Below are positions 15,940 through 38,597 of a DNA stretch of 53,409 nt, piece after piece. The stretch lies in the IMG/VR virus record IMGVR_UViG_3300020042_002363, positions 1-53,409 of that record; one strand, written 5' to 3'. Positions within the stretch are counted from its first letter, which is position 1; each line of letters opens with the position of its first letter. The position numbers and the translations under genes are program-made. The notes under the pieces were generated by a model. It was not told the DNA's origin and did no database searches. It was given only the letters and a program-made list of their open reading frames with translations. The DNA comes from a virus. Taxonomy: Duplodnaviria; Caudoviricetes.

Positions 15940-16853
15940 TGGCTGGCGTACTTGGATTTCTTGCTGGGGCAATTGCTGTACCATCTGGTGGTGGAAGCTC
16001 TCCCCCTACTTCTGTTACTTATGTGATTGTTGGTGGAGGAGGGGCTGGCGGTCAACAGGGAGGTGGAGGTGGAGCTGGCGGCTACCGCACTGGCACTCAA
16101 TCTGTTTCTACTGGAACTGCTTATTCTTGGTCTGTAGGTAATGGAGGGGTTGGTGCTGCTGGTGTAGGAACATCAGGCTCTGCTACTGTATTTAATTCTA
16201 TTAGTGCGGCTGGAGGCGGTTATGGTGGCACACCACCTAATGATGCTGCAAGCGGCGGTTCAGGCGGAGGTGGTGCGGTAGAAGGCGATCCTTCTCCATC
16301 AGGAGCAGGTAATACTCCATCAACAACTCCAGCACAAGGATTTGCTGGCGGTGCTGGTAAACCTACAGCTCCGGGCTATGGAGGTGGTGGAGGTGGTGGA
16401 GCTACTGCGGTTGGAGCTTCTGGTGGCGCAACAGCGCCTTACAATGGAGGAGCTGGTGGGGCTGGTATTGCAAACCCAATTACTGGATCGACTACAGGTC
16501 AATTGTCAGGCCCTACTTATTACCTTGCTGGCGGTGGTGGTGCAGGTGCGTTTGAAAATGGCCCTTCTCCAGCAGCCGCAACACAAGCTGGTGCAGGTGG
16601 TCTTGGAGGCGGTGGTGCTGGCACAGTAGGTGCAGTAAATGCAACTCCGGGGAGTGTTAACACTGGAGGCGGGGGTGGTGGCACTGGCAAAGCAACAGCA
16701 ACTGGTGGGTCAGGCGGCCGTGGTGTTGTGATTATTGCTTATGCATCTACTTTCTCTGATGCAGTATCTACAACTGGAACAATCACAAAAACAACTGCTG
16801 GTGGTAACACTATTTATACAGCAACCACTGGTTCTGGAACAATTACTTGGTAA
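15939..16853 (+). CDS. Glycine-rich domain virion protein
   Basis: VGGGGAGG, GGGGAGG, NTGGGGGG, GGSGG.GVVII.Y motifs. Confidence 0.8.
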   Translation: MAGVLGFLAGAIAVPSGGGSSPPTSVTYVIVGGGGAGGQQGGGGGAGGYRTGTQSVSTGTAYSWSVGNGGVGAAGVGTSGSATVFNSISAAGGGYGGTPPNDAASGGSGGGGAVEGDPSPSGAGNTPSTTPAQGFAGGAGKPTAPGYGGGGGGGATAVGASGGATAPYNGGAGGAGIANPITGSTTGQLSGPTYYLAGGGGAGAFENGPSPAAATQAGAGGLGGGGAGTVGAVNATPGSVNTGGGGGGTGKATATGGSGGRGVVIIAYASTFSDAVSTTGTITKTTAGGNTIYTATTGSGTITW

Positions 16854-19297: not shown

Positions 19298-21004
19298 ATG
19301 GGCAAAAATATTAAGTATGGTGAGTTTACTTTTAGCAAACCAAAGCCTCGTCCAACTGTAAAGGGATATGCATTTGGTGGCGCTACTGAGCCAGTTGCTG
19401 AACCAATGACTGCTAAACAGCCAATGGGAATGTCACCACCATTAGTACAAAAACCCATGCAAAAACCAGTAGTGACTCCTGCTCCTCTAAGCCCTGCTAT
19501 GCAGCGTCAGCAAGAGAATCAAGCGGTTATTAATAAAGCAAATGCAAATCCCAATAGAAAAGGAAACCCGCTTCTAATTGATCCTGTTGCGATGAAAGGT
19601 GCGACTGATAGGAACATGGCGATTAGGCAAGCTACTGATGCTAGACATAGAGCAGAAGCAAAAGCAAACGCTATACCTTCTAAAAACCCATACGCTCGTA
19701 GCACCATGCCCATAGCAAGACAAAAAGGCGGCAAGGTTGGTTTGTGGGACAACATTCATGCAAAGCAAGAGCGGATTAAAGAAGGCTCTGGCGAGAAAAT
19801 GCGAAAAGCTGGCTCTAAAGGCGCTCCTTCTGCACAAGATTTCAAAAACTCCGCTAAAAAGATGCAACAAGGCGGTGAAGTAAAAGGTTATGCGGCAGGT
19901 GGTATGTATGAATTGGATGATGCACCAATTCAACGAAGAGATGCCAAAGTAAAAGCTATAAAATTAAGGTTAGCTGAAGAAGCAAAAAGAAATGCTGCTC
20001 AATCTAAAAACCGCGCTGAACAACAAATGGGTCAAGGTAAGGCAAATTTATTGCCAAGCCCTGCTAGAGCGCCAGATACTGATACCCCTAGCCAAATGAT
20101 GAAAATGCAAAAAGGTGGTGAGGTAAAGGGTTATGCGGCTGGCGGTATGTCTGCATTAACTAAAGCAAAAGCTCCAATGTCAGCTAATAAGCCAGCAATG
20201 GGTCAAATGCCATCTTATGCTCAAAACCTTGCAAACCAAACTCCAACAAGTTTGAGCGGGATGAAACTTCCACCTCCTCTTCCTATGGCGCAGCCAATGG
20301 GTGGGCAGATGGGTGCTTTAAGCAACTTGATGCGCCAATATAATCAACAGGGTATAGGTATGCAGCAACCAATGGGAAATATCCCTAATTTTGCTCAGCC
20401 TTACATGAATCAGGCTAATCAGCCAATTGGCTATCCACCTCCGCCACCTACACAGCAGCCAATGGGTGGAGTTCCTGCTTATGCTCAGCCTTTTATGAGC
20501 CAGTCAGCAACTCCTATGATGGGCGCTAATAGGTCGCCTGTGAACGCTCCTACGCAATCTGGTATGCCTCCACAAATGGCAGGTATGGGTTTAGGTATGG
20601 GCGCTAGTCTTGGTTTCAAAAAGGGCGGAGACGTTTCTAAAGGCAAGGCTAAAGCTATGGAAGCTTCAGCAAAAGATAAGTCTCAAGACAAAGCAATGAT
20701 CAAAAAGGCTATGAAGCAGCATGATCAGCAAGAGCATAAAGGCGGTAAAGGTACTGTTTTAAAGCTTAAAAATGGTGGGAAAGCTCCTGTTAAGGGCGTA
20801 AAACTAGTTGGAATGAAGCGTGAACCTCTTGCTATGGTTAAAAAAGAGGTTTCTTTGCTTAAAAAGGCTGGCGCACCAGCAAAAATGATTAAGCATGAAG
20901 AAATTGAGGCTGCTTCGCCAATGTCTTCTATGGGTGGTATGCGAAAAGGTGGCGCTGCCATGAAAAAAGGTGTTCCAACCTTTAATCGCACCCCTAAATG
21001 CTAA
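19298..21004 (+). CDS. Basic low-complexity protein built of xxxGG-delimited peptides
   Basis: 568 aa, K/M/Q/P-rich, at least 9 xxxGG motifs. Confidence 0.8.
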   Translation: MGKNIKYGEFTFSKPKPRPTVKGYAFGGATEPVAEPMTAKQPMGMSPPLVQKPMQKPVVTPAPLSPAMQRQQENQAVINKANANPNRKGNPLLIDPVAMKGATDRNMAIRQATDARHRAEAKANAIPSKNPYARSTMPIARQKGGKVGLWDNIHAKQERIKEGSGEKMRKAGSKGAPSAQDFKNSAKKMQQGGEVKGYAAGGMYELDDAPIQRRDAKVKAIKLRLAEEAKRNAAQSKNRAEQQMGQGKANLLPSPARAPDTDTPSQMMKMQKGGEVKGYAAGGMSALTKAKAPMSANKPAMGQMPSYAQNLANQTPTSLSGMKLPPPLPMAQPMGGQMGALSNLMRQYNQQGIGMQQPMGNIPNFAQPYMNQANQPIGYPPPPPTQQPMGGVPAYAQPFMSQSATPMMGANRSPVNAPTQSGMPPQMAGMGLGMGASLGFKKGGDVSKGKAKAMEASAKDKSQDKAMIKKAMKQHDQQEHKGGKGTVLKLKNGGKAPVKGVKLVGMKREPLAMVKKEVSLLKKAGAPAKMIKHEEIEAASPMSSMGGMRKGGAAMKKGVPTFNRTPKC

Positions 21005-21073: not shown

Positions 21074-22060
21074 GTGGCGGTTTCTGGAACAGTTTCTCAA
21101 ACTGTATTTAATACTCGCAAAATTATTGATCATGCGTTTCGCAAATGCCGTTTGCCGCCTGAAGGGGTTGGTGGCGAGCAAATGGTTACCGCTCAAGAAA
21201 CTTTGTACCTATTGCTATCCGCTCTGGCAAACAGAGGGTTGCAGTTATGGTGCATTGAAAAGCTAATCCTTCCACTCCAACCAGCTAATGCAGAAGTCCC
21301 AGTTGGCAATGGAATTGTTGATTTACTTAATACAAATTACCGCACAGTAGAAGCTCAAACTGGTGTCACTACTGTAACAAGTAGTTCATATACAGTAAAT
21401 TTTACTAGTCCAACTTCAATATCTACAGTAGGTCTGCTTTATGGTTCTAATGTAAGCACTAATTATTTAGTTCAAACTTCTACAAACGGAACTACTTGGA
21501 CGACTCTGCTCGTAATGGATGCTGCTGGTTTAGCTAATAAGTGGACATGGAAAGACGTTCCAGTACCTATAACCACTTCATACATCAGAGTTTTTGGTTA
21601 TGGGGTAGGTTTTGCACCTGCTCAATTTGTATTTGGTAACACACCAAATGAAATACCAATGGCTCGTTTGAATCGAGACAGCTATGCAAATCTACCAAAC
21701 AAAGCATTTGAAGGTAAGCCTTTACAGTTTTGGTTAGACAGAACTCTTGATGAGCCAATCATGTACATATGGCCTGTCCCAAGCGCATCAACCGCAATAG
21801 CTCAAGTTACTACCTATGTGAAGCGTTACATCATGGATGTAGGTACATTGACTCAAGAAATTGAAGTCCCACAGCGTTGGTATGAAGCTATTGTGTATCA
21901 GTTAGCAGCAAGGTTTGCAGAAGAGCTTCCACAAGTTGACCCTTCAATGATTCCTATTATTGATCAGAAGGCTATGAGGGCGCTTAATGAAGCAGAGATG
22001 GAAGAGCGTGATAACTCTCCAATTTATTTCACTCCTAACATTGCGGTGTATACAAGATGA
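21074..22060 (+). CDS. Head-tail adaptor / tail tubular protein A-like with inserted beta domain
   Basis: II..AFR.C, NRGL.LW, Y..LPNK...G.P.QFW, IWPVP, P.RWYEAI...LA. Confidence 0.7.
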   Translation: MAVSGTVSQTVFNTRKIIDHAFRKCRLPPEGVGGEQMVTAQETLYLLLSALANRGLQLWCIEKLILPLQPANAEVPVGNGIVDLLNTNYRTVEAQTGVTTVTSSSYTVNFTSPTSISTVGLLYGSNVSTNYLVQTSTNGTTWTTLLVMDAAGLANKWTWKDVPVPITTSYIRVFGYGVGFAPAQFVFGNTPNEIPMARLNRDSYANLPNKAFEGKPLQFWLDRTLDEPIMYIWPVPSASTAIAQVTTYVKRYIMDVGTLTQEIEVPQRWYEAIVYQLAARFAEELPQVDPSMIPIIDQKAMRALNEAEMEERDNSPIYFTPNIAVYTR

Positions 22061-24941: not shown

Positions 24942-25427
24942 ATGCTGACACTATTATCAACAACACTGTCGTTCTTAATGGGTGGTTTGCCTAAGTTGCT
25001 TGCTTTCTTTCAAGATCGTTCAGACAAGAAGCATGAGTTGCAATTAGCTCAAATGCAGATGGATCAGCAAATGAAAATGCAAATGGCTGGCTTTGCTTCT
25101 CAAGAGAAGATTGAAGCTATTCATACTGAGCAGATTCAGATTCAAGCTGATGTACAAGAACGACAGGCTCTTTATCAGCACGATATAGAAATAGGTAAGG
25201 GTGCGTCGCAATGGGTAATTAACCTGCGCTCATCAGTGCGCCCAGTAGTGACTTACATGTTTGTGTTGTTGCTAATGATTGTAGATATATCTGGCATTTT
25301 CTGGGCATGGTCTAGTGGATTGGATTTCTACAAAGCTATGCAGTACATCTTTGACCAAGACGAAATGCAGATTCTCGTTTCTATTATTGCATTCTGGTTT
25401 GGTACGCAAGCATTTAGTAAGAAATGA
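24942..25427 (+). CDS. Holin (3TM, GTA-holin-like)
   Basis: DKKHEL, W...LR.SVRP.VTY, II.FWFG; precedes lysozyme. Confidence 0.8.
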   Translation: MLTLLSTTLSFLMGGLPKLLAFFQDRSDKKHELQLAQMQMDQQMKMQMAGFASQEKIEAIHTEQIQIQADVQERQALYQHDIEIGKGASQWVINLRSSVRPVVTYMFVLLLMIVDISGIFWAWSSGLDFYKAMQYIFDQDEMQILVSIIAFWFGTQAFSKK

Positions 25428-25921
25428 AAATATCAGATCATTGCTTGTTGTCTATTAAGCAAAATGAAGGTGTAAGGTTTAAGCCATACCTTGATCACAT
25501 TTTGCTTTGGACAACTGGTGTAGGGCATTTAATTGCACCTCAAGAGCATATGAAAATGACATGGGATGAGCGCAAAGTTGCTAAGGCTACGGGGCAGTTA
25601 ATATGCCCACCTGAATGGGATAGGAAGTTGACTAATGAAGAAGTCGATCAGATACTCAAGAGTGATTTACGACGTTTTGAATCTGGTGTTTTACGTTATT
25701 GCCCCTCTAATATTACTCAGGGAAGATTTGATGCTTTGGTGAGCTTTTCATTCAATTGTGGGCTTGGAGCTTTACAGCGTTCTAGCATTAGAATGCGCCA
25801 CAATCGAGAGGATTATGAAGGGGCGGCAGATGCTTTTATGTTGTATAACAAAGCCGCAGGTGTTGTAAACAAAGGTTTGACACGCCGTCGCGGTGAAGAA
25901 CGAGCAATGTATTTAAGTTAG
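25424..25921 (+). CDS. Endolysin, GH24 lysozyme
   Basis: EG.R.KPY.D....WT.G.GH, FDALVSFSFN.G, GL.RRR.EE. Confidence 0.93.
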   Translation: MKISDHCLLSIKQNEGVRFKPYLDHILLWTTGVGHLIAPQEHMKMTWDERKVAKATGQLICPPEWDRKLTNEEVDQILKSDLRRFESGVLRYCPSNITQGRFDALVSFSFNCGLGALQRSSIRMRHNREDYEGAADAFMLYNKAAGVVNKGLTRRRGEERAMYLS

Positions 25922-26584: not shown

Positions 26585-27712
26585 ATGACAACTTACACTA
26601 ATATTTTTGGCGGCTCAAACATTGCTGCTGCTGATGCTTCTTATTCATCTTATTCTTTAACTTCGGCAGATATAAATTTATCTTGGCCTATAGAAACCAA
26701 TGCTGATTCTAATTTAGCTACGACAATAATAGATGTAATTCCTTACACAGCAAACAGAACACTTTATTTGCCTAGAGCAAATGAGGCATCAGTAGGAAGC
26801 ACAATTTTATTTAATAACCTTGGCGTCGAACAATTCAATGTAAAAGACGTTAGCGGTAATTTAATAGTTGCGCCAACTCCGGGGACTATTTGGCAAATTT
26901 ATTTAGTCTCTAATTCAACCGCAAATGGCTCTTGGAGAGCTTACCAATATGGTGCTTCATTATCTGTTGCAAATGCTGCTGCACTAGCTGGTACTGGAAT
27001 TATTGCGCTTGGCTCTGTACTCTCACAGTCAATGCCAATCTCAACGTATTCATCAAACTATACTTTATTGATACCTGATCGTGCTAAAACCTTTTTATGG
27101 AATGGTGGAGCTGGTGTATTTACATTACCAGAAGCAGTCCAAGCTGGAAACAATTGGTTTGTACAATTTAAAAATGGCGGCTCAGGAACTGTTTTAGTTT
27201 CCACTATTGGTTCAGATTTGATTGATGGATTTACTTCAGTCTATTTGCAGCCGCAAGATTCTTGTATTGTTATGACTGATGGTCAGAACTACTACACACT
27301 AGGTCTAGGTCAAACAGCAAGCTTTGCTTTTGACTACATATCAATTAATGTGGCTGGCTCTGGAAACTATACATTAACTGGCTCTGAATTAAATCGTATT
27401 TCTTATAACTTCACTGGTTTGTTAACTGGCAACAGAACTATTATTGTACCGAATACAGTACAGCAATATTGGGTAACAAATTCAACCACAGGTGCTTATA
27501 CCTTAACAATAAGAACGACACTAGCAACTGGTGTTGATATTAATCCTAATACAGCATCAATTTTGTACTCTAATGGAACGCAAGTTAGGTTTGCAGATAG
27601 TAGTGGTGTTGGTTTCCCTATTGCAATTTCTCAGGGTGGAACTGGCGCTACATCAGCGGCTGCTGCTGTAATTAATTTAGGCTTAAACCCAGTTGATGGT
27701 GGAGGCTTCTAA
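26585..27712 (+). CDS. Tail structural protein
   Basis: Beta-rich; FTG.LTGNRTI.VP, AISQGGTGATSA. Confidence 0.7.
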   Translation: MTTYTNIFGGSNIAAADASYSSYSLTSADINLSWPIETNADSNLATTIIDVIPYTANRTLYLPRANEASVGSTILFNNLGVEQFNVKDVSGNLIVAPTPGTIWQIYLVSNSTANGSWRAYQYGASLSVANAAALAGTGIIALGSVLSQSMPISTYSSNYTLLIPDRAKTFLWNGGAGVFTLPEAVQAGNNWFVQFKNGGSGTVLVSTIGSDLIDGFTSVYLQPQDSCIVMTDGQNYYTLGLGQTASFAFDYISINVAGSGNYTLTGSELNRISYNFTGLLTGNRTIIVPNTVQQYWVTNSTTGAYTLTIRTTLATGVDINPNTASILYSNGTQVRFADSSGVGFPIAISQGGTGATSAAAAVINLGLNPVDGGGF

Positions 27713-29343
27713 TGGCTGCTAAGCCTGTCAGGGTAATTTCTAAAGCGGGTATTAAACGCGATGGAACTAAATTTGAGGGTGACTATTACGTTGACGGACA
27801 ATGGGTTCGTTTCCAGCGTGGGTTGCCTCGTAAAATTAATGGGTACAGAAATGTAACCGATTATCTAGCAGAGATTAGTCGTGGAATGAAGTCATTCACG
27901 CAAAATGAATCTACATACATTCATTCTGGCGGCACTAGCTTTTTAGAAAAATTTACGCTTGATGCTGATGGACTTGCAGGTATTGTCTATGATAGAACAC
28001 CTGCTACATTAAATAGCCAGTTAGATAATTCATGGCAGTTTGATGTTTTGTATGATTCAATCAGTCTTGTACCAAGCAACAAGCTTATTGCTCAAGCAGC
28101 TCCAAACCTTGCCTCTTTGTACAACTCTTTATCTGGGCAGGTTTTTTATGGGGACATGCAAGAGAATGACCGCCTTATTGAGCTTACATTGCCTGAAGGT
28201 GTTTCTGCTAGTGGCGGTATTTGTGTATTACATCCATACCTAACTATTTTTGGAACTGATGGTTCATTAGGATGGTCAGTCCCCGGAAACCCTGCTGATT
28301 TAGTTGGCGAAGGTTCTGGTAATGCTCGTATTGCAGCACAAAAAATTGTTCGTGGATTACCTCTTCGAGGTGGTCCGGGCAATTCTCCTTCAGGATTGTA
28401 TTGGTCAACTGATGCCGTAATCAGAGCTTCATTCATTGGTGGGCAGCAGGTATTCCAATTTGACACGATAACTTCAGCCTCATCAGTTTTGTCTCCCATG
28501 TCAATAATTGAATATGACGGAGTTTATTTCTGGATTGGTGTTGACCGTTTCTACATGTTTAATGGTGTTGTACGAGATGTAGAAAATGTTTTGAATATTA
28601 ACTATTTCTTTGATGGCTTAAACAGGGAATACGCTCAAAAAGTATTTGCTTACAAAGTTCCTAGATTTGGTGAAATCTGGTGGTGCTATCCAAGAGGTGA
28701 CGCTGTAGAGTGTAGCCACGCAATTATTTACAATGTTAAAGAGAATACTTGGTACGACACTGAATTACCCAATGGTGGGCGTTCTGCTGGCGAATTTATC
28801 CCTCGTTATGCAGTCCCATTTCTTACTGGTGTTGAATATAACTTTAATAGACCAGCAGCCGATATTCGTCAAACTGAAGCTGGATTAATAAGAACGACCG
28901 TTTCTGGCGACATTAGAACTTTGTTCCAATCAAACAACTACAAGCTTTGGGAGCATGAGGTTGGTGTTAATGAGATTGATGTTAATTTCGTAATACCTAT
29001 TCAGTCTTATTTTGAGACTGCCGACATGAGTATATTGATAACAAATGGACAAGATAAGTCATTGCGTTGTGAGTTGTTAGAGCCAGATTTTGTGCAGTCT
29101 GGAAACATGACTGTGCAAATTACTGGTAGATCAAATGCTAGGTCAAAAGAAATAACTGGTGAGGTAAAAACTATAGTTGCAGAACCAACAACTCCTTATG
29201 AGCAGGTTGTATATTTTAAAGATATACGAAGAGAGATGCGGTTTAGGTTTGAGTCTAATACTTTGAATGGCGACTACCAAATGGGTCAGGTAATTGCTCA
29301 CATAGAAGAAGCTGATGGAACTGTGTTAGGAGCAACAAATTGA
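27712..29343 (+). CDS. Tail nozzle/stabilisation protein (P22 gp10-like)
   Basis: GI.RDGT..W.RF..G.P.K, FGEIWW.YP, YN..E..W; size and position. Confidence 0.75.
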   Translation: MAAKPVRVISKAGIKRDGTKFEGDYYVDGQWVRFQRGLPRKINGYRNVTDYLAEISRGMKSFTQNESTYIHSGGTSFLEKFTLDADGLAGIVYDRTPATLNSQLDNSWQFDVLYDSISLVPSNKLIAQAAPNLASLYNSLSGQVFYGDMQENDRLIELTLPEGVSASGGICVLHPYLTIFGTDGSLGWSVPGNPADLVGEGSGNARIAAQKIVRGLPLRGGPGNSPSGLYWSTDAVIRASFIGGQQVFQFDTITSASSVLSPMSIIEYDGVYFWIGVDRFYMFNGVVRDVENVLNINYFFDGLNREYAQKVFAYKVPRFGEIWWCYPRGDAVECSHAIIYNVKENTWYDTELPNGGRSAGEFIPRYAVPFLTGVEYNFNRPAADIRQTEAGLIRTTVSGDIRTLFQSNNYKLWEHEVGVNEIDVNFVIPIQSYFETADMSILITNGQDKSLRCELLEPDFVQSGNMTVQITGRSNARSKEITGEVKTIVAEPTTPYEQVVYFKDIRREMRFRFESNTLNGDYQMGQVIAHIEEADGTVLGATN

Positions 29344-29567
29344 TAACTTTACCTATTATAATAGGATTAAGAGATTGGGCTGACCAGATCGTTCTTGACC
29401 TGAGTATTTACGGCAATATGCCTCAGCTTGATGATGAGAATAAGTGGCAGGAGTGGGCTGTCTCTTTATGTGCAATTGCTGACATAACTTCAAAAAACCC
29501 ACCTGATGCACTTTCTTTCTCAGACTGGCGTGAATGGGCTAGTCGTTTTGCACAAATAATGGCATAA
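29340..29567 (+). CDS. Small Trp-rich conserved protein
   Basis: DWA..W.EWA..F.DW.EWA pattern; coupled to nozzle gene. Confidence 0.7.
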   Translation: MITLPIIIGLRDWADQIVLDLSIYGNMPQLDDENKWQEWAVSLCAIADITSKNPPDALSFSDWREWASRFAQIMA

Positions 29568-30267: not shown

Positions 30268-31806
30268 ATGGGACTTTTTAGTTGGGTAAGCAATGCTTGG
30301 GATGGTATTGTTGATTTTGTATCTGAATCAGCTAGTGATTTAGGCTCTGCAATTTCAGAATCATGGAAGGATGCTGGCAAAATATTAGATAAATATGTTG
30401 TTAAGCCAATTGAGAAAGACCCATGGGGTTTTATTGTTACTGCGGCGGCGGCTTCATTTGGCATACCTTATATAGTAGGTCCGGGCATGATTGCGTCAGG
30501 TATTGCAAGCACTGCTGTTTCATTAGCTCAAGGTAAAGATTTTGATGATGCATTAACTGATGGCGTTACTGCGGCTGTGTTGGACTTTGGTATTTCTGAA
30601 GGGTTCAATGTTCTTAAAGGTTCACCAAAACCATTTGGTTCTTCTGCGAACATTGGAGCGCAATTTGATTCAACACCAACATTTGAATCAATGTTTGGTG
30701 ATGCAGCTCCAACAAAAACAGTCACAAATCAATTAGATGATTCATTAAACCTTAATAAAGATTTCACATCAGCAATGCCAGAGAATCAAGTTGGTGCATT
30801 AGACTTAAATAAAGAACTTGATTTTAATCCTCAGCAGTTTGATGAAATGGCTGCATTAAGACCTGATGAAATTGCAGCTATGAATGAAGGTTCATATTTT
30901 AATGATCCTTATCCTAATGAAACATATTTAAATGATGACGGAATGTTAGGGTTTGATAGGGGTCAATATGCTGCATATACAGAACCAGCCCCAAGACTTT
31001 CAGATATATATCCAGAGCCAAAAAATTATTTAAGTGATATAAGCACAAATGAACTTGGTGCGCTTCCTGATTCTGGCACATACAAAGCGCCAATAGTGGA
31101 TATGGGAGTAGATGCAACTAAAAAAGCTGCTGACATTACTGCTGGTGATTGGTGGAAACATCCAGTAGATACACTTGGTAAATACACTGAAGACAAGATT
31201 GGTGTTGATATTACCAACCCATGGATTGTTGGTGGAGCTGGACTTGGTTTAAGTTATCTTCAAAAGAAAAAAGCTGCTGAAGAAGAAAGACGACGCAGAG
31301 AAGAGGCTGCAAGAAATGATCCATTAAATAGCCCATTGTTTACTTCTCGTTTACAACAATATAAATATGAAAGAAATAGAAATAAATACACAGGTGATCC
31401 TATAAGGTATGGTCAAAGAGACAATGTAAATCAAGGTGAATTTGCATTCTATGACCCAGCACAATTTACTCCAATAACTCCAGCCGCAACTGGTGGTCAA
31501 ATACGCGCTCCGCATTCTTACTATCAATATGGGAATGTACCTGCGTCAGTAAAAGAATATGCGCATGGCGGGTTAAATGCACTGTCTCATGGTCGCTCTG
31601 ATGATATTCCAGCAGTTCTATCTGATGGTGAGTATGTAATGGATGCTGAAACAGTTGCGTTGCTTGGCAATGGGTCAACTGATGCTGGTGCAAAACAATT
31701 AGATCGTATGCGTGAATCTTTGAGAAAGCAAAAAGGAAAAGCTTTATCTAAGGGTAAGTTTTCTCCTAATGCTAAATCTCCATTAGCTTACTTACAAAGA
31801 GGTTAA
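30268..31806 (+). CDS. Internal virion/ejection protein with C-terminal SDDIPA.LSDGEYV domain
   Basis: MGLF start with hydrophobic helices; AATGG and YAHGG motifs; tape-measure-like C-terminal domain. Confidence 0.7.
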   Translation: MGLFSWVSNAWDGIVDFVSESASDLGSAISESWKDAGKILDKYVVKPIEKDPWGFIVTAAAASFGIPYIVGPGMIASGIASTAVSLAQGKDFDDALTDGVTAAVLDFGISEGFNVLKGSPKPFGSSANIGAQFDSTPTFESMFGDAAPTKTVTNQLDDSLNLNKDFTSAMPENQVGALDLNKELDFNPQQFDEMAALRPDEIAAMNEGSYFNDPYPNETYLNDDGMLGFDRGQYAAYTEPAPRLSDIYPEPKNYLSDISTNELGALPDSGTYKAPIVDMGVDATKKAADITAGDWWKHPVDTLGKYTEDKIGVDITNPWIVGGAGLGLSYLQKKKAAEEERRRREEAARNDPLNSPLFTSRLQQYKYERNRNKYTGDPIRYGQRDNVNQGEFAFYDPAQFTPITPAATGGQIRAPHSYYQYGNVPASVKEYAHGGLNALSHGRSDDIPAVLSDGEYVMDAETVALLGNGSTDAGAKQLDRMRESLRKQKGKALSKGKFSPNAKSPLAYLQRG

Positions 31807-31808
31807 AA

Positions 31809-32813
31809 ATGGCTCTAGCAGAAATAGGAGACTTTTTATTTGGGGCTAAAGCTCCCCCATCAGTTACAACTTACGGGACTAGTACAACTACTACTCCTGC
31901 TTGGTATAACGACTACACACAAGGTTTAATTGGTAAGGCTAATGCAATTGCTGCTGAGCCATATCAACTATATACAGAGCCTCGTATTGCAGAATTTACT
32001 GACAATCAGAATCTAGCGTTTGCATTAACGCCTGAAGCTGCTGGCTCTTACATTCCTTATTTGGGTGGTGCTACTGATCTTTATAATCAACTAGGAAACA
32101 CTACTGCGTTAAGTAAAGCACAGCCTTATTTAAATAATGCATCTCAAAATAGTTATGCAAATGTACAAAATTACATGAACCCATACATGGATTCGGTTAC
32201 TAATCGAATCGGTCAAATGGCTCAGCGTAACTTGTCTGAAAACATTATTCCGCAAATTCAGAACCAATTCATTGGCGGTGGATCATTTGGTGGTAGCCGT
32301 AGTGGTACAGCTATGGGTAAAGCAATGCGTGATATATCTGCTGACACTTTAGCGCAACAAACAAGTGCATTAGCTGGTGGATACAATCAAGCAATGGCTC
32401 AAAGCGCAGCAGACCTTACAAGACAGGGACAGTTAGGTCAAATAACTGGTGCAATAGGTCAAGCAGACCTTACTAGACAGCTTCAGCTTGGACAGCAATA
32501 TGCTGGTCTTGGTGCATTGGCGCAGTCTCTTGGTCTTAATGAGGCTGCCGCATTGGAGGCTGTTGGTCTTACACAGCAAAATCAAAATCAGAGAAATCTT
32601 GATTTGGCTTACTCAGACTTTGCTGATCAGCGTGATTACGACAGAAATAATATTGCATTCTTGAATGCTGCTATTCGTGGTTTAGCTATTCCAACATCAA
32701 CATATGCAACTCAGAGTGGGCCTGCTGGTTCATACCAACCATCAGGGTTGTCGCAGCTTGCTCAAGTTGGCTCTATGATTTATGGCGGCACTAAAAAAAG
32801 CCCGGGAACTTAA
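31809..32813 (+). CDS. DNA ejection (pilot) protein
   Basis: Q/A/G-rich helices, YMNPY, G.FGGSR motif. Confidence 0.7.
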   Translation: MALAEIGDFLFGAKAPPSVTTYGTSTTTTPAWYNDYTQGLIGKANAIAAEPYQLYTEPRIAEFTDNQNLAFALTPEAAGSYIPYLGGATDLYNQLGNTTALSKAQPYLNNASQNSYANVQNYMNPYMDSVTNRIGQMAQRNLSENIIPQIQNQFIGGGSFGGSRSGTAMGKAMRDISADTLAQQTSALAGGYNQAMAQSAADLTRQGQLGQITGAIGQADLTRQLQLGQQYAGLGALAQSLGLNEAAALEAVGLTQQNQNQRNLDLAYSDFADQRDYDRNNIAFLNAAIRGLAIPTSTYATQSGPAGSYQPSGLSQLAQVGSMIYGGTKKSPGT

Positions 32814-32828: not shown

Positions 32829-35800
32829 ATGGCTAATAAACCTCGTCGGTATGACAACTTGGCTGATTTTGATTTTGAAAGCTTAATTCCTCAGCAGGGA
32901 TTAAGTAATCAGCCTGTACAAAATAATGAGTTAACTGATGATGAACTATTAGCTCTTAATCAAGGTGCTGAAGACCCAAATGCTGATTACCTAAATCAAA
33001 CTTCTGCTGGTGTTCGATTATCAGACCCAAGTGTTAACCCATCATTTGCTAATAAGGCTAGTCAAGCTGGTGAGCGATATTTAACTCAGAAAAAAGCAGA
33101 AAGAACTGCAACAGCAGAAATTTTAAAAAAAGCTCAGGAAGCTTTGCTTGCTAGATCGCAAGAAGGTTGGACTCGTGGCGATTATTTTAGACTTGCTGCT
33201 GCCCTTGGTAAACCAACAAGAACTGGTAGCTTTGGTGAAGAATTAGGCAATGCTGCTGAAGTTATGGCTGGAGTTAGTGACCGCCAAACAAAAGCTAAGC
33301 AAGACTATGAAGCATTAAAATTAAAATACCAATTGCAAAATGCATCTCAAGGTGCTGAAGATGCTGAGCAAGAATTTGGTGTGTATAGCAAACTTGCAAC
33401 TGGCAGAGGTCAATCTGCATCTAGACTGCGTCAAATGCAAATAGAGCGTGATGCGCTACCAATGAATGACCCAGCTCGTGCTGAATTAAGTGCAGCTATT
33501 GAATTAATGACTACTGAGAAGAAAACAAAAGCTAATACTCCTTCAGGTCAGTTTGTTGAATTAGTAACCATAGCTAATGATGTTAATCAGCCTAAAGAAG
33601 TTAGAGAAGCGGCTGCTGCAAAGATAAGAAAAGAAACATACATTCCTCCTCCGAAAGCACCAAAGGGTGAGCCACCTCCTGTAGTTAATTTAACTGCTGC
33701 TGAAAACACTGGTATGCGTTTAGGTGTTCCTGTCATGATTGACAGCCCATTTTCTAATGTTGATCAAAAAACTCAACAGCAATTAGTATTACAAGCAAGC
33801 AAACGTGCGCAAGCTGAAATAGCAAAAGTTGAAGAGGCAGCAGATAAGGCTCAATTTTCTCAGCAAAAGATGGCGCGTTTTCTTAAATTAAATAAAGAAA
33901 ACCCAACTAACCCTATTACTGGAAAATTACCTTCATTCAAAGCTGCTGCTCAAGAAATGGATAACATTACTGCTGAGCTTGCACCTGAAAAAAGATTAGA
34001 AGGAACTGGTTCGGTTTCTGACTTTGATGCTAAGCAGTTGCTTAAAGCGGTTGTTAACCAAAGCAATTCTTATGAGGCTAACAAAAATATTGGCTTGGCA
34101 TGGGATGCTTATGCAAAAACAATAAAAGAGAAAAGTAATTTCTTGCGTAACTACTTTACCACCAATAAAACTTTGGATGGCTCTAGTCAGGCATGGATGC
34201 GCTACATGAATGCGAATCCTATTTTTGATCCAAAGCAGCCCGGAACTTTTGCTCCTAACAAAGCTCGTAAGACTTATAAAGAATTCTTCTATCCACCAAA
34301 GCCACAACAAAAAGCTGAAGGTGGCATAGTTAATTATTCTGATGGTGGTGATGTATCTCCATACAGTAATTACTATGAACAAGAGCAGCCAGATTTATCT
34401 GTGTTGATGAATAAGTATGCTCATGGTGGTGCTGTAAATCATCCACAATATGATCAATATGGTCGTAGGAAATTTGCTAAGGCTGGAGAAGTAAAAGAAG
34501 GTTATAAATTATATTCCCCGCATAAAGCTGGTTTTCAGAATTTATTTTTTGGCATAAACGATAACTCATTAAAAGATTTAAACACTGAAGACAGGGATTA
34601 TGTAAAGCAACAGCATAAAGACTATATAGATTCTATAACAGGAAATAGAACAGGTTTTATTAGAAAAATCAATGAGCTTTTAAGAAAAGATGATTACTAC
34701 TGGATTAAAGACCCTAACTACAATCCAAATGCTAATTCATCAGGCACAGGTACAGGTACAGGCACTGGCTCTGGAACTAGTGATGGCTCAAGCACTAGCA
34801 ACAACTCTGGCAAACAATACAACCCAGTAAGTGATGTATCTAAATACGGGTACAGACCTCAGCATGATTTCTATTTGCAAAATGGGGTGTCTGATTCTGC
34901 TGCAAGTGAGGAAGAAATCTCGTCTTCTGAATCAGATACTGTTAATAACCAATCACGCAATAAAAGGGTATCTGACAATCCAGAGTGGTTTGACTATTTA
35001 TCAAACTTTGGTACTGCAACACCATCAACTTATAGAAACACCCCTAAAGAATTAGATAAATTATTATCGCAAGATTATTTGTTAGACTTTGATTTGTACG
35101 CTAAAGGCGGAGAAGTAAAAAATAAATTGTATGACAAGTATGGTCGTCAAAAATTAGGTTGGGGTGGTCTGGGTTTTCTAAGAGCATTTAAACCTACAAT
35201 AGCACCAGCACCTACACCTACACCAGAAACAAAACCAGACTTTAGTTTTTTAGATAGGGCAGACTTTGGTACAAAACCTACGCCTACGCCTACACCAACG
35301 CCAACTCCAACTCCAACACCTACACCAGTTGTTGATCCATTGCCAAAGCTTTCGGAAGAGGCTGTAATTGCTGCGACTAATTTAGGTCGTAAATATGCAA
35401 GACCTACCCAAGATTTGTATAATTATGGATCAAGAAAAGCGCATAAGTTTTTTACTGATGGACAAAATTATGCTCGTAATGATGGTTCTATTCCAGTAAC
35501 AGATGGTTCAGGTACTAACACAACAACTCCAGTAGTTGTAAAACCCACACCTACTCCTACACCTGCGCCAGCAAAAAAATGGGCATATAAAGGACAATGG
35601 AATCCAGCTATATTACCTCCTAATCAGCGTTTTTCTCATGGTGGTGTAGCCCATATGCAAGAAGGTGGAGTTCCACCAGAATCAGTCGTGCGTTTAAAGC
35701 CTATTCGTTCTTCTGACTCAGCTAACCGCGCTCGTGCTTTCTTTGGTCAAGGCATGGGTATGTCTATTGGTGATGAAGCAGAAGCTTTGTACCGTAAATA

Positions 35801-38597
35801 CTTAACTGATGAAGGCTCTAACAAGAGCTATGGTCAATTGGTTGATGAAATTCGTAGTGATTACCGTCGATTCTCTGAAGAGAACCCAGAGCAGCAAATG
35901 GCTTTTGAACTTTCTGGTGGCATAACTCCTACTGTAGGCGCAATGTTGTTGCCCGGAGGTCAGACTGCGGCTGGTGCTAATGTTGGTCGTATGGCTAACA
36001 TGTTTACAAAAACACCATTGCGCCGTGCTGCAACAGGTGCTGGAGCTTCTGGTGCTGTATCAGGATTTAATGCAGGTGAAGATACATTGTCTAATCGTTT
36101 AGGCAGTGCTACTGAGAGCGGATTAACTAGCACAGTGCTAGGCCCTGTCGTTGGTAAGGCTGGTCAACTTGCCTTGCGTGGCGGTAAGGGTGCTGTAAAC
36201 CTTGCTAAGCGCCCATTCCAGATTGGTGACAACTATCTTGAACAGCAAGCCATGGACAAGGTCTTGGAAAAAATGCGTCAAGATAACATCACACCTCGCC
36301 AAGCTCTTGGTCGTGTTGCTAATGATCGTGGATACAATCCGACTACTAGACCTGTAGGAACTCGCCCTGACACTCGCCTGATGGATGTCTCACAGGGATT
36401 GACTGACTTGGCTGAAACCGTAACACAGAGACCCGGAGGCGGTCGTACTGCTATGGTTGAGGACATGAAGAATCGTGTTCGTGGCACGAAGGGCAGAGTC
36501 ACACAAATGGCTAATGAGGCTCTAGCAGGTAACAAGGCTTACTTCAAAGAAGTAACCGACTTGACAAAAGACTTACGCTCAAAGGCTGATACTGCTTACC
36601 AAGCTGCATATTCTTTTGGTGATGTATCTGACCCAAGAATTATGGGTATTTTAGATACGCCAGAGTTTAAACGTGCTTATCAAGAAATAATGAAGACTAA
36701 TCAAATCAAGAAGGCTAATGCGGTTGCATTAGGTCAAGACCCTTCACAGTTTGATATGAAGCAGATTTATCGAGTCAAGCCCGGACAAAATCCTGACAGC
36801 CCTATTCTTGATTTAGAGTTGACTGATGTTCCTGATGTTAGGACTTTGGACAACATCAAGCAAGGTATTGACACTGTTATTGCTAAAGGATTTGCAAGCG
36901 ATGACAAGATTAGCCGAGATGCAGCTAATGCTCTCAAGCAACTGAAGAACACTTATGTAAGCATTCTTGATGATGCAGTACCTGCATATAAAGTTGCGCG
37001 CAATCAATACAAGGGCGACATTGAGATTATTGAGGCATTAGAAACTGGTCGTAATCAGTATTCAAAAATGTTACCTGATGAAGCAATGCAATATGTTTCT
37101 ACATTAAGTGATGCTGAAAAACAGGCTTTACGTGTTGGCTATGCTCAAAACTTTGCTACCAAGATTGGTGAGTCTAAGAACTCAATCAATGCTGCTGAGC
37201 AGATAATTGGTGCTGAGAATGAGCGTCTACGTTTAAGAGCATTGTTTGGCTCTGATGCTGAATACAAAGTATTTGAAAATGCTTTGATGGCTGAGTCTCG
37301 CAACTTTAGAAATGCAGGTCAAGTGGTAGCAAATTCTGCTACCGAGCGCCGTGCTATGGGTCGTAAAGAGTTTGAAAACAATGATGCTGTTGGTGAAATA
37401 CTCGATGCTACTCGTGGCGGTGTAACTAGCACTGTACTCAGCATTTTGCGTAAAGCTCCATCACTGTTTAAGAATGAAAAAATAGCTGAGAAAGTAAGCA
37501 AGATTCTTTCTACTGGCACACCACAAGAAATCAATTCCATTCTTAGACAAATGGAAAAACGTGCTGTTGGTTTCTCTAAATCCGCAAAGACTAAAGAGCG
37601 TGTTGGTTATGCAGGTGCTAAAGCTACTGGCAGGGCATCAGGTCAAACTCCTATTGCAGCTTCATATGAAGAACCAGCTCCAGAGGAACTTCCATCAGCA
37701 ATTGACCCAAGCTCTGAGGGTGCATTAGACCCATCTGAAAGTGTTGTTTTTGATTCTCCAGAAATAGAACCTCAAGACACAGAAGAGCCAGAGCAGGTAG
37801 AAGTTCCAATGGAGCAGCAACGATATGGTGGCGGTCTTGTCCGTAAATTTGCTGATGGTGGCTATGCTGAATTTACACCTGAGAAAATTGCTGAGCATTC
37901 AAAAATGCTTGAATACCAAAAAATGCGTCGTAAACAGGCTGATGACTATTTAAAGCAGGTATATGACAGGCGTGCAAAAACTCAATCTAGAAGCCCTGTA
38001 GGTGGAGTAGGTGGTGGTGCTGCTATTGGTCACATGAGTGATCCAAGCTCAGTTAAATCCCTAATCCCTAACTTTGCTGAAGGTGGTTCTGCTAGAGAAG
38101 CTAATTATGTATCAGACATTTTAGACAGAGTTGATGTTAGTGCTTATGCTGATCAAATGCAGCAAGGTAAAAACAGAAGTAAGTTTATGATGGGTAGGCT
38201 TGGATATCGTCAACCACTTGCAGATAACAGACAATTATCTGGTGGCTTATCTGGTAGTGCTGTTGAATATGAGGGTGAGGATAATCGAGGCAATAAATAT
38301 CAGGGCGGCAAATCTGGTTTGACAGGCGCTGATTTAGCTTATGAAGATGAAAAGAACCGTCTGGCTGTTAAGTATACAACTCCACAAAGAGAGAATAATT
38401 TAGCATTCCAAGGTGTTGAGTATGCTCGTAAGCTTGCAAATAACAAAGGGACTGTTGGTGGTCGTTATTCTAGAATTTCTCCAGAGGGAATTCGTCGTGA
38501 ACCACAAGCAGAGCTTTTCTATAACAAGCAATTTAAATCTGGTGGTGCTGTAAAAAAGAATGCTATGAAAAATGTAATGCGTAAAATGGCTAAATAA
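32829..38597 (+). CDS. Giant modular internal virion protein (1922 aa)
   Basis: Two ejection-protein-like helical blocks, low-complexity linkers, about 12 xxxGG motifs, C-terminal beta-strand module. Confidence 0.8.
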   Translation: MANKPRRYDNLADFDFESLIPQQGLSNQPVQNNELTDDELLALNQGAEDPNADYLNQTSAGVRLSDPSVNPSFANKASQAGERYLTQKKAERTATAEILKKAQEALLARSQEGWTRGDYFRLAAALGKPTRTGSFGEELGNAAEVMAGVSDRQTKAKQDYEALKLKYQLQNASQGAEDAEQEFGVYSKLATGRGQSASRLRQMQIERDALPMNDPARAELSAAIELMTTEKKTKANTPSGQFVELVTIANDVNQPKEVREAAAAKIRKETYIPPPKAPKGEPPPVVNLTAAENTGMRLGVPVMIDSPFSNVDQKTQQQLVLQASKRAQAEIAKVEEAADKAQFSQQKMARFLKLNKENPTNPITGKLPSFKAAAQEMDNITAELAPEKRLEGTGSVSDFDAKQLLKAVVNQSNSYEANKNIGLAWDAYAKTIKEKSNFLRNYFTTNKTLDGSSQAWMRYMNANPIFDPKQPGTFAPNKARKTYKEFFYPPKPQQKAEGGIVNYSDGGDVSPYSNYYEQEQPDLSVLMNKYAHGGAVNHPQYDQYGRRKFAKAGEVKEGYKLYSPHKAGFQNLFFGINDNSLKDLNTEDRDYVKQQHKDYIDSITGNRTGFIRKINELLRKDDYYWIKDPNYNPNANSSGTGTGTGTGSGTSDGSSTSNNSGKQYNPVSDVSKYGYRPQHDFYLQNGVSDSAASEEEISSSESDTVNNQSRNKRVSDNPEWFDYLSNFGTATPSTYRNTPKELDKLLSQDYLLDFDLYAKGGEVKNKLYDKYGRQKLGWGGLGFLRAFKPTIAPAPTPTPETKPDFSFLDRADFGTKPTPTPTPTPTPTPTPTPVVDPLPKLSEEAVIAATNLGRKYARPTQDLYNYGSRKAHKFFTDGQNYARNDGSIPVTDGSGTNTTTPVVVKPTPTPTPAPAKKWAYKGQWNPAILPPNQRFSHGGVAHMQEGGVPPESVVRLKPIRSSDSANRARAFFGQGMGMSIGDEAEALYRKYLTDEGSNKSYGQLVDEIRSDYRRFSEENPEQQMAFELSGGITPTVGAMLLPGGQTAAGANVGRMANMFTKTPLRRAATGAGASGAVSGFNAGEDTLSNRLGSATESGLTSTVLGPVVGKAGQLALRGGKGAVNLAKRPFQIGDNYLEQQAMDKVLEKMRQDNITPRQALGRVANDRGYNPTTRPVGTRPDTRLMDVSQGLTDLAETVTQRPGGGRTAMVEDMKNRVRGTKGRVTQMANEALAGNKAYFKEVTDLTKDLRSKADTAYQAAYSFGDVSDPRIMGILDTPEFKRAYQEIMKTNQIKKANAVALGQDPSQFDMKQIYRVKPGQNPDSPILDLELTDVPDVRTLDNIKQGIDTVIAKGFASDDKISRDAANALKQLKNTYVSILDDAVPAYKVARNQYKGDIEIIEALETGRNQYSKMLPDEAMQYVSTLSDAEKQALRVGYAQNFATKIGESKNSINAAEQIIGAENERLRLRALFGSDAEYKVFENALMAESRNFRNAGQVVANSATERRAMGRKEFENNDAVGEILDATRGGVTSTVLSILRKAPSLFKNEKIAEKVSKILSTGTPQEINSILRQMEKRAVGFSKSAKTKERVGYAGAKATGRASGQTPIAASYEEPAPEELPSAIDPSSEGALDPSESVVFDSPEIEPQDTEEPEQVEVPMEQQRYGGGLVRKFADGGYAEFTPEKIAEHSKMLEYQKMRRKQADDYLKQVYDRRAKTQSRSPVGGVGGGAAIGHMSDPSSVKSLIPNFAEGGSAREANYVSDILDRVDVSAYADQMQQGKNRSKFMMGRLGYRQPLADNRQLSGGLSGSAVEYEGEDNRGNKYQGGKSGLTGADLAYEDEKNRLAVKYTTPQRENNLAFQGVEYARKLANNKGTVGGRYSRISPEGIRREPQAELFYNKQFKSGGAVKKNAMKNVMRKMAK
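35278..35327 (+). repeat. Pro-Thr linker repeat
   Basis: (PT)n with mixed synonymous codons. Confidence 0.8.

Follow-up and report, generated by a model that had tools for sequence, protein, structure and literature searches.

A conserved C-terminal module of a podovirus ejection-type protein is homologous to a segment within siphovirus tape-measure proteins

The 512-residue protein p512 (30268..31806) ends in a small domain that directly follows two Gly-Gly motifs, which raises the question of what this domain does and whether it acts on such motifs. The gene lies in a 53,409-nucleotide stretch of a Caudoviricetes virus record (IMGVR_UViG_3300020042_002363), referred to here as the window, and all of the features given below are encoded on the plus strand. 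The original prediction was that this domain may bind xxxGG peptides, or cleave them, in trans, its own motif serving as a ligand in cis.

p512, the first ejection-type protein of its cluster, comprises an acidic and poorly conserved N-terminal part of 400 residues and a conserved C-terminal module. Kyte-Doolittle values above 1.2 were found only for 19-residue windows starting at residues 52–69, marking a hydrophobic, Gly-rich and likely membrane segment at residues ~52–90 (30421..30537). Towards the C-terminus, AATGG (residues 406–410; 31483..31497) reads as a degenerate upstream copy of an aromatic-A-x-G-G motif; relatives of p512 have [FY]AxGG at this position, approximately 26 residues ahead of the second motif. 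In p512, 20 residues separate AATGG from YAHGG (residues 431–435; 31558..31572), which the alignment assigns to the module, and after a further six residues GRSDDIPAVLSDGEYVMDAETVALLGNGSTDAGAKQLD... continues through to the stop codon at 31804–31806. The conserved core of the module, GRSDDIPAVLSDGEYVMDAETVALLG (residues 442–467; 31591..31668), was delimited by alignment and is the same core that recurs in tape-measure proteins (TMPs); the coordinates, frame and text first reported for AATGG, YAHGG and this core were all correct. The core is followed by a basic helix at residues about 473–490 (31684..31737), which corresponds to helix 80–100 of a 119-residue model and contains the invariant residues R482, R486 and K489, and by a KSPLAYL tail at the C-terminus, KALSKGKFSPNAKSPLAYLQRG (residues 491–512; 31738..31803). 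The C-terminal fragment as a whole is basic, with a pI of 9.4. p512 thus shows the module pattern x-A-x-G-G, then within approximately 35 residues ..P-A-x-L-S-x-G-E-[FYH]-V..A..V.

The module belongs to a large family, and its recurrence goes well beyond chance. When the last ~108 residues of p512 were used as the query, 3507 of 4023 candidates of 281–896 aa matched at E≤1e-3, and so did 158 of 342 among the longer candidates and 568 of 619 among the shorter. An exhaustive phmmer search with residues 425–512 returned 8842 cluster representatives at E≤1e-3, of which 2407 remain at E≤1e-10. In a set of 80 related viral loci, matches to the C-terminal 112 residues are present in 80/80 (by construction) and matches to the N-terminal 400 residues in 4/80; judged by sequence comparison, the C-terminal module is the sole conserved part of p512. 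It is C-terminal in 238/240 relatives, with the core 67–73 residues from the C-terminus wherever the pattern used on relatives matched. An alignment of 48 sequences has 18 invariant columns. Within YAHGG, G434 never varies, and at least 90% of the sequences retain G435; in the core G442, D445, A449, L451, G454, E455, V457, D459, A460 and G467 are invariant; and in the tail A502 and Y508 are invariant and S499 and P505 nearly so. The core alignment indicates that the basic helix is specific to the podovirus-type family, and over the full range of the module (18 core sequences plus lambda) little persists beyond G-E/D-[FYH]-V and some small residues. The nearest GG motif belongs to the module itself: when the 70 aa preceding the core were searched, x[AKSG]xGG was present at 72/77 loci, 13–34 residues upstream.

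Searches of Pfam and NCBIfam with p512 at E≤1 matched no family, enzyme or other. The module is partly covered by phrog_6090, phrog_3547, phrog_13338 and phrog_24, with PHROG matches of p512 at E 1.7e-5 to 1.8e-3. A profile search of the PDB with the family alignment gave low-complexity noise alone, because the profile took in variable N-terminal columns, and the ESM Atlas gave unnamed viral clusters only, the nearest named entry being a crAss cargo protein (0.85) that serves as a lead only. We found no description of the module in the literature, and among the papers listed for the names FAxGG, YAxGG or 'GEFV motif' none uses these names and none concerns phages. By tblastn with a 60-aa core, the module is distributed among phages of Actinobacteria, Proteobacteria and Cyanobacteria. 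All 59 of its genome matches fall in metagenome bins from many phyla, several on contigs of ~50–63 kb, and are probably mis-binned phage contigs. No fusion of the module to the product of the next gene was seen among module proteins, and proteins with an internal module simply run on into further xxGG motifs.

The genes around p512 are those of a podovirus. Upstream of the cassette is p543, a tail hub or nozzle (27712..29343), with PDB sequence matches to 9nwi_Y (E 5.5e-16) and to 8zkk_O/8zkm_E, 'nozzle gp16' (E 2.8e-13), and a homologue in 74/80 loci; the Pa223 preprint gives a tail hub of 513 residues. Between the hub and p512 lies p75, a small conserved protein (29340..29567; homologue in 72/80 loci). 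The next ejection-type protein, p334 (31809..32813), starts 2 nt past the p512 stop and matches phrog_4287 'DNA ejection protein' (E 1.1e-14), and its homologue follows the module in 70/70 of the loci whose downstream sequence extends to 1200 nt or more. It is followed by p1922 (32829..38597; phrog_5880), a giant ejection-type protein rich in aromatic-x-x-GG, with a homologue in 39/80 loci. This gives the order hub, membrane protein, mid-size protein and giant protein that characterises a podovirus ejection set, as in Pa223, and the segment at residues 52–90 supplies the membrane segment. We conclude that the p512 gene is part of a podovirus ejection cassette and is not a tape-measure gene; the description of p512 as the first ejection protein, which had been inferred from gene order, is supported by this context.

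Consistent with this assignment, p512 matched none of the tape-measure core families PF10145, PF06791 and PF20155 (Pfam, E≤1), and a search of the genome with PF10145 gave no match at E≤1. The p512 gene is not located between tail-assembly chaperones and distal-tail/hub genes, its neighbours being the podovirus-type hub, a small protein and ejection-type proteins. In agreement with the further claim that the genome has neither a TMP gene nor a recognisable prohead protease, the ORFs scanned gave no match to PF10145, S78, S49 or ClpP. By analogy of gene order, p512 would be the counterpart of T7 gp14 or Pa223 gp56. T7 gp14, P22 gp7 and the Pa223/LUZ24 gp56-type proteins occupy the same place, after the hub or nozzle and before middle-sized and giant proteins, and a membrane segment is found in all of them and in p512. 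However, p512 is larger than T7 gp14 or P22 gp7, and the module was not detected in T7, P22 or LUZ24 by a six-frame HMM search at E≤1.

Although p512 is not a TMP, a likeness of its C-terminal segment to TMPs had been noted in the original prediction, and this likeness is real, as judged by the family HMM, tblastn and PHROG matches. The matches of p512 to TMP PHROGs are weak and module-sized. Among the tblastn matches listed for the 60-aa core, 52/60 fall under features annotated as tape measure, and a PDB sequence search matched two copies of the module in Douge gp16 (E 1.8e-4). The family HMM gave domain E-values of 2.4e-13 for Nitrincola, 7.4e-12 for Henu15, 5.8e-10 for Hestia and 2.7e-8 for ReqiPine5, with two domains in Douge (3e-7 and 7e-7), and the module proteins of these five phages carry TMP Pfam domains. 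The core is clearly homologous between p512 and Douge gp16, Hestia gp19, ReqiPine5 gp27, Nitrincola orf121 and Henu15 Gp1, the common form being [FY]AxGG-x2-4-GPG[ST]G[RT]SD[SD][IM]PAxLSNGE[FYH]V..A..V. At the level of sequence, then, the p512 module is homologous to a segment within siphovirus TMPs. Its position differs: unlike in p512, it is internal in Hestia (850–901 of 1325) and ReqiPine5 (908–945 of 1732), whereas it is doubled in Douge and stands ~90–100 residues from the end in Nitrincola and Henu15. The TMP versions also lack the basic helix and tail of p512. In the Douge structure 8ZDO, residues 1658–1699 alone of gp16 are modelled (PMC13033339).

The module also appears to be present in lambda gpH, weakly but significantly by profile score. 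gpH carries FATGG...GEFV...YATGG at 734–783 (FATGG at 734, GEFV at 754–757 and YATGG at 779), and a broadened core HMM aligned to gpH 753–772 with 8.2 bits, a score reached by 0/500 shuffles; the family HMM, for which podovirus sequences only were used, gave no significant match to gpH or to T5 pb2. HTVC115P gp72 ties the module family to phrog_24, which is lambda's own, through a match at profile positions 939–995, or roughly gpH 735–791. What gpH shares is the order of elements, with aromatic-A-x-G-G, ~16–19 residues, P-A-x-hydrophobic-x-x-G-E-F-V, a short A-containing helix with G-x-G-N and then a second aromatic-A-x-G-G, as well as a hydrophobic Gly-rich segment upstream and a position of the stretch ~100 residues from the C-terminus. 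gpH lacks the G-R-S-D-D stretch, basic helix and KSPLxYL tail of p512, and S444 and D445 of p512 are Y and E in gpH. Unlike p512, gpH is also a genuine tape-measure protein, with PF06791 and PF09718, and is encoded beside the G/T chaperone genes.

gpH is known to be cleaved. According to PMC12617516, gpH sheds a ~14 kDa C-terminal piece from a Gly-rich region by a cut whose site and catalyst were not identified, and gpH ~690–817 is structurally unresolved. The lambda module stretch falls within the cleaved gpHC fragment described there, and a hypothetical cut before A734 would yield computed products of 79.7 and 12.6 kDa. For T5 pb2, the published cleavage sites lie after R1127 (PMC10038345) and after V1148 ±1 (quoted in PMC11937520). 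These two sites bracket AEGG (1128–1131) ... GEHGTEVV (1142–1149); residues 1127–1149 offer A-x-G-G and, ten residues on, G-E-H...V-V, resembling the module; pb2 has two A.GG in total in its 1219 residues. The best score of pb2 against the broadened core HMM was −4.2 bits, reached by 176/500 shuffles, indicating no profile-level similarity; what ties T5 to the module is thus a motif of four residues.

We addressed the fold of the module by structure prediction. A single module, modelled with AlphaFold2 from a 48-row alignment, gave a pLDDT of 55.1 and a pTM of 0.24 and was mostly coil with one helix, a model too poor for fold searching. A natural tandem of two modules gave a pLDDT of 64–82 over both and a pTM of 0.50, a model of moderate confidence based on 8 sequences, in which each copy is predicted to form strand-turn-strand-helix-helix, the core being a beta-hairpin around a D-G turn and then a short helix. 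This tandem model had no significant match among PDB folds (best Foldseek E 0.26, best VIA Z 3.0), with no protease prominent. Against BFVD it had 11 matches at E≤0.001, none of them functionally named: nine are 'Uncharacterized protein', one is DUF4214 and one a collagen-repeat fragment. Peptidase families in Pfam and NCBIfam gave no match for p512 at E≤1, and a check for catalytic residues found no candidate conserved across the 18-sequence core alignment and lambda. The core has what we take to be a likeness to LexA/S24, G-x-S-x...D-G-[DE]-hydrophobic. A self-cleaving domain of that type was rejected, as Pfam gave no Peptidase_S24 at E≤1 and the models show a hairpin and helices as opposed to an all-beta fold. 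A LysM-like reading of the core was likewise rejected, with no profile match and an unsuited predicted secondary structure. Taken together, the module looks like an interaction or processing element and not a recognisable protease.

The ORFs of the window contain 10 copies of the strict motif [FY]AxGG, always in structural or ejection genes and never in the first 15 kb. Five motif proteins hold 9 strict copies against 0.32 expected from within-protein shuffles; p1922 has 4 strict motifs against 0.11 expected (9 loose against 1.71), and p568 (19298..21004), a low-complexity basic protein with a repeated GGEVKGYAAGG, has 3 against 0.04. At 77 loci, the genes that lie downstream of the module contain more strict motifs than expected (39 observed, 10.5 expected) and those upstream fewer (2 observed, 10.9 expected); in 44 loci the sequence continues for 6 kb or more past the module, and these have 37 in trans where 8.2 are expected. 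This enrichment is the part of the predicted co-occurrence of the domain with xxxGG-rich ORFs that stood; as a rule for individual loci it did not, since just 22/44 have a strict motif in another protein and the looser aromatic pattern is also missing downstream in 16/44. Reading or cleavage of xxxGG in other virion proteins in trans would fit the enrichment and the near-constant cis motif, as well as the finding that T7, P22 and LUZ24 lack the module and that none of their 15 ejection or scaffold proteins contains a strict motif, although these are three control phages in all. It is weakened, and we now regard it as very improbable, by the loci with no motif in trans, the lack of a peptidase profile or fold match, the mostly coil monomer, which is not predicted to fold even with the cis motif included, and the TMPs, where motif and core share one polypeptide with no separate substrates.

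The reading that we favour, while giving it somewhat less than an even chance, is that p512 ~431–512 is a fold-on-assembly interaction module common to channel-transiting proteins and not an enzyme. It would begin with a turn at the GG motif and continue with a beta-hairpin on L-S-D-G-E-Y-V, a short helix, and the basic helix with the conserved tail. p512 would be the first ejection protein of a podovirus and the one that inserts into the membrane; ejection proteins and TMPs alike have to leave the virion extended, through a narrow channel, and then assemble in the host envelope. The module would be unfolded in the monomer and take on its fold when it pairs with a partner, which could be a second copy or one of the conserved neighbours (p334 or the tail hub), and such pairing might tether p512 in the virion, nucleate a trans-envelope conduit, or both. 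In favour of this reading are the conservation of the module, its fixed neighbours, the ejection-cassette setting, its recurrence in TMPs, the better model for the tandem than for the module alone and the missing enzyme signal; pairing itself, the partners and the timing are inferred. A single fixed docking site does not suit all cases, because the module is mid-protein or doubled in some TMPs, and since TMPs and podovirus ejection proteins have no known common virion partner, any common partner would have to come from the host or be the module itself. Simple pairing also does not account for the GG-motif enrichment in other ejection proteins, and cleavage of gpH and T5 pb2 in or beside the equivalent stretch suits a processing role at least as well.

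In that processing role, which we consider rather unlikely, aromatic-A-x-G-G and the GE[FY]V core would mark, and perhaps drive, a cut that is coupled to assembly and releases ~80–120 residues from the C-terminus, as when gpH gives gpH* and gpHC and pb2 gives pb2* and pb2C, through autocatalysis or a host protease recruited by the module. A cut before A432 of p512 would release a basic peptide of 81 residues, similar in size to fragments of 120 and 92 residues. The lambda module falls exactly in the stretch lost from gpH (PMC12617516), the bracketing of AEGG ... GEHGTEVV by both pb2 sites fits as well, the two module copies of the Douge TMP flank a region with an NlpC/P60 match, and there is a precedent in P22 gp7, which according to its record annotation is trimmed by OpdA, a host protease. 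Set against this are the lack of detectable homology of the T5 stretch, the disputed T5 site (R1127 is also a tryptic site), and the absence of a residue suited to catalysis across the whole range and of any match to self-cleaving families in Pfam. In addition, short stand-alone module proteins, which occur on long contigs and many of which begin at internal methionines of Met-rich regions, are indistinguishable from truncated gene calls. The more specific claim that the module is the determinant of assembly-coupled cleavage in channel-transiting phage proteins, including both the gpH cut and release of the ~81-residue p512 peptide, we hold to be improbable; were it true, such processing would be common to long- and short-tailed phages, and the extra GG motifs of giant ejection proteins would be further sites of like kind. 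We judge it equally improbable that, after ejection, the hairpin together with the basic helix binds a component that very different hosts have in common, peptidoglycan or the cytoplasmic membrane, and so anchors the conduit. The spread of the module over phages whose hosts have few envelope parts in common is in keeping with such targeting, as are the invariant basic residues of the helix, the pI of the fragment, the endolysin label of phrog_971 (one module-containing PHROG) and the cell-wall hydrolase match between the Douge copies. Nevertheless, LysM, SH3, PG_binding and other wall-binding families were unmatched at E≤1, and the TMP versions do without the basic helix and tail.

Whichever of these roles applies, the module has thousands of relatives and yet no Pfam or NCBIfam model or solved structure. 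It links the TMPs of long tails with the ejection proteins of short tails, which are usually treated apart, and supports the view that both classes do the same job in genome delivery. Its position in the cleaved part of gpH, unresolved in every structure, provides an experimental handle on an old question, where the cut falls and what specifies it. The module is also a source of mis-annotation: the podovirus ejection genes of GB2A and DSL-LC04 are labelled 'tape measure protein' because of the module.

The protein p512 (30268..31806, + strand; 512 aa), the first ejection-type protein of this complete viral record (53,409 bp, with direct terminal repeats), ends in a module of about 85 residues. 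Re-reading of the ORF bore out the motif text and coordinates originally given for this end: AATGG occupies residues 406–410 (codon 406 lies at nt 31483), YAHGG follows twenty residues later at 431–435, and six residues past YAHGG begins the module core GRSDDIPAVLSDGEYVMDAETVALLG (442–467), after which come NGSTDAGAKQLDRMRESLRKQKG, modelled as a helix, and the C-terminal tail KALSKGKFSPNAKSPLAYLQRG. The protein has one strong hydrophobic stretch (residues 52–90), and it changes from acidic over the N-terminal two-thirds (pI about 4.1) to basic at the C-terminal end (pI 9.4).

The module is real and conserved. A word-indexed search with the last 108 residues of p512 matched 3507 of 4023 candidates of 281–896 aa at E≤1e-3, together with 158 of 342 longer and 568 of 619 shorter candidates, and exhaustive phmmer of 1.84 billion cluster representatives with residues 425–512 returned 8842 at E≤1e-3 and 2407 at E≤1e-10. 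Of the 240 proteins listed from the longer and the 281–896 aa candidates, 238 carry it as their extreme C-terminal part. In a 48-sequence alignment there is almost no consensus over the N-terminal 400 residues, and 18 module columns are invariant (G434, G442, D445, A449, L451, G454, E455, V457, D459, A460, G467, G469, A473, R482, R486, K489, A502 and Y508); in a set of 80 related viral loci, all 80 match the C-terminal part, by construction, and 4 match the N-terminal part. No Pfam domain covers the module stretch in any of the 240 relatives listed, and neither Pfam nor NCBIfam matched p512 at E≤1.

Upstream of p512, p543 (27712–29343) matches solved tail hub/nozzle proteins (9nwi_Y, E 5.5e-16; 8zkk/8zkm ‘nozzle gp16’, E 2.8e-13), and the gene order in the window is hub p543, p75, p220, p512, p334, p1922, p2209. 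For phage Pa223, a preprint places a membrane protein, then a middle and finally a large ejection protein, after a beta-propeller tail hub of 513 residues. The p334 protein matches phrog_4287 ‘DNA ejection protein’ (E 1.1e-14) and its homologue follows the module in all 70 loci with at least 1200 nt downstream, and of the 80 related loci, 74 have the hub and 72 have p75. The view that this genome has neither a tape measure nor a recognisable prohead protease is borne out within the range tested, with no match to the PF10145 tape-measure core or to S78, S49 or ClpP proteases in the genome at E≤1, no peptidase among the 13 larger ORFs scanned against Pfam and no protease among the 15 scanned against PHROGs. 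Since p512 stands in a hub and ejection gene context whose order is kept in relatives, with no tape-measure core, and carries the hydrophobic stretch, its designation as first ejection protein is a sound inference, and we conclude that its cassette is of the podovirus ejection type, not a tape measure.

The original prediction had also pointed to a likeness to tape-measure proteins (TMPs), correctly, as the module is found in bona fide TMPs and, weakly but significantly, in lambda gpH. Residues ~426–492 of p512 weakly match phrog_13338 and two tape-measure PHROGs (E 1.7e-5 to 1.8e-3), phmmer against PDB sequences found two module copies in the mycobacteriophage Douge TMP gp16 (E 1.8e-4), and a tblastn search of 50,697 phage records with the 60-residue core hit 121 at E≤1; among the 60 rows listed, 52 fall under features annotated tape measure, two of which (GB2A and DSL-LC04) are mislabelled podovirus-type cassettes like that of p512. 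A family HMM built from 240 family tails located the module in Nitrincola orf121 (1323–1374 of 1472; domain E 2.4e-13), Henu15 Gp1 (814–849 of 935; 7.4e-12), Hestia gp19 (850–901 of 1325; 5.8e-10), ReqiPine5 gp27 (908–945 of 1732; 2.7e-8) and twice in Douge gp16 (957–1006 and 1398–1449 of 1699; 3e-7 and 7e-7). TMP Pfam domains are present in four of these five proteins; Douge gp16 has only an NlpC/P60 match, at 1295–1331 between its module copies, with copy 2 directly after. The common core in the alignment is [FY]AxGG, 2–15 residues, then G[PA]G[ST]G[RT]SD[SD][IM]PAxLSxGE[FYH]V..A..V...G. We found no solved structure showing the module, the Douge TMP being modelled only over residues 1658–1699 (PMC13033339).

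The p512 homologues GB2A gp065c (7585–9327 of its locus) and DSL-LC04 (3889–6168) are labelled ‘tail length tape measure protein’, a label that very likely stems from the shared module, and the homologue in the podovirus-type cassette of MinM2 (7413–8297) is annotated ‘calcium-binding protein’. In Pelagibacter phage HTVC115P, gp72 (6293–7300) ends with the module and four xAxGG motifs and is encoded between portal and capsid genes; the module is therefore not restricted to tail-hub neighbours.

Residues 731–783 of lambda gpH read FHFATGGFTGTGGKYEPAGIVHRGEFVFTKEATSRIGVGNLYRLMRGYATGG. A podovirus-only HMM does not reach gpH; a broadened core HMM, which adds six copies from five TMPs, scores gpH 753–772 at 8.2 bits, against a maximum of 4.9 bits for 500 gpH shuffles. 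The HTVC115P gp72 module (family HMM match 9.3e-10) also matches phrog_24, the family of lambda gpH, at profile positions 939–995 (E 8.2e-4), and with gpH 1–852 aligned to positions 205–1055 this maps arithmetically to about gpH 735–791. Pfam Tape_meas_lam_C covers only 627–701 of gpH, so the module is uncatalogued in lambda too. It sits within the stretch (residues ~690–817) given as unresolved in the lambda gpHC fragment in PMC12617516, gpHC being the C-terminal piece of about 14 kDa that gpH loses by cleavage.

The cis GG motif is part of the module: x[AKSG]xGG lies 13–34 residues before GE[YF]V in 72 of the 77 loci, of 80 examined, in which the domain ORF was recognised, its first residue being F or Y in only 23. 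Many relatives end in Y-[ML]-x-x-G-G or run on with more xxGG motifs, and the second YATGG of lambda gpH resembles these terminal or additional motifs. Relative to within-protein shuffles, strict [FY]AxGG motifs in the 77 loci number 63 in domain proteins (7.8 expected), 39 in downstream ORFs (10.5 expected) and 2 in upstream ORFs (10.9 expected); in the window, five proteins hold 9 (0.32 expected). The proposed co-occurrence of domain and motif-rich proteins stood in part, in that the 44 loci extending 6 kb or more downstream hold 37 strict motifs there against 8.2 expected, but only 22 of them have any, and 28 have a looser aromatic pattern. T7, P22 and LUZ24 have no module in a six-frame search at E≤1 and no strict motif in 15 ejection/scaffold proteins. 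Co-occurrence is thus a real tendency, measured against a control set of three phages, and is not obligatory. Within the head-gene region of the window, p568 (19298–21004, +; 568 aa), a basic, Q/P/M-rich protein of low complexity whose only profile match is phrog_16028 (unknown function), carries GGEVKGYAAGG twice, reads KYGEFTF...YAFGG in its N-terminal part and has 3 strict motifs against 0.04 expected.

The single module (119 residues, 48-row alignment) was predicted as mostly coil with one long helix over AGAKQLDRMRESLRKQKG (pLDDT 55.1, pTM 0.24), and the Atlas model of whole p512 is equally poor (pLDDT 0.45). Proteins with two modules in tandem form a subfamily, with 4 among the 240 proteins and 7 among the best 150 representatives; its members include P0469, P0457, P0476, P0467, P0404, P0178, P0202, P0173 and a protein at 6345–8264 of locus L002. 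The first module keeps GTGQSDDIPAMLHDGDYV and is without the tail, and in the second the G-x-S-D-D stretch is missing, the basic helix and the tail being retained. In the model of P0469 (222 aa, 8-row alignment; pTM 0.50), pLDDT is 64–82 over both modules, each forming a strand, D-G turn, strand, short helix and longer helix. It matched no solved fold, the best Foldseek E being 0.26 and the best VIA-align Z 3.0, and its 11 BFVD matches at E≤0.001 all lack a functional name. Since the tandem is modelled better than the single module, folding of the module seems to require a partner, a role that a second copy can serve.

The best-fitting reading, which we hold tentatively, is a small fold-on-assembly module common to proteins that transit the tail channel; it would fold during assembly and pair with its own copy or a conserved neighbour. 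The most interesting rival, a processing module, is suggested by the places where lambda and T5 are cut. A hypothetical gpH cut just before A734 gives a computed 79.7 + 12.6 kDa, and for T5 pb2 two cleavage sites are published, one after R1127 (PMC10038345), which is also a tryptic site (PMC11937520), and one after V1148 ±1 (an older study quoted in PMC11937520). The region reads ...FVPR/AEGGMMYPGVSYQMGEHGTEVVTPM..., the candidate sites bracket A-x-G-G and G-E-H...V-V, and A.GG occurs only twice in the 1219 residues of pb2. However, the core HMM does not detect this stretch (best −4.2 bits, reached by 176 of 500 shuffles), so the T5 likeness rests on a very short motif, and the module has no conserved catalytic residues; both points weaken the processing reading, which is held unlikely. 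An envelope-binding role is rather improbable, and the trans reader or protease originally proposed, which would bind or cleave xxxGG peptides with its own motif as cis ligand, is very improbable. In the papers searched, no printed description of the module was found under motif names or tape-measure cleavage or motifs.

The species-genome collection gave 59 matches, every one in a metagenome bin. The bins are assigned to many unrelated phyla, archaea and Saccharibacteria among them, and several matches lie on contigs of about 50–63 kb; they appear to be misbinned phage contigs, and therefore no host can be taken from them. After the ejection cassette, p2209 (38607–45236, +; 2209 aa) has an ART-PolyVal ADP-ribosyltransferase domain (residues 452–558, E 3e-15) and is a giant ‘polyvalent’ protein, probably delivered with the DNA. 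An endolysin gene (25424–25921, +; phrog_7, E 2.1e-39) lies inside the structural block between small virion protein genes, a 328-aa protein (21074–22060, +) has an F5/8 type C (discoidin) domain and a weak SU10-adaptor match, and a 304-aa Gly_rich_2 domain protein (15939–16853, +) contains 31 GG pairs.
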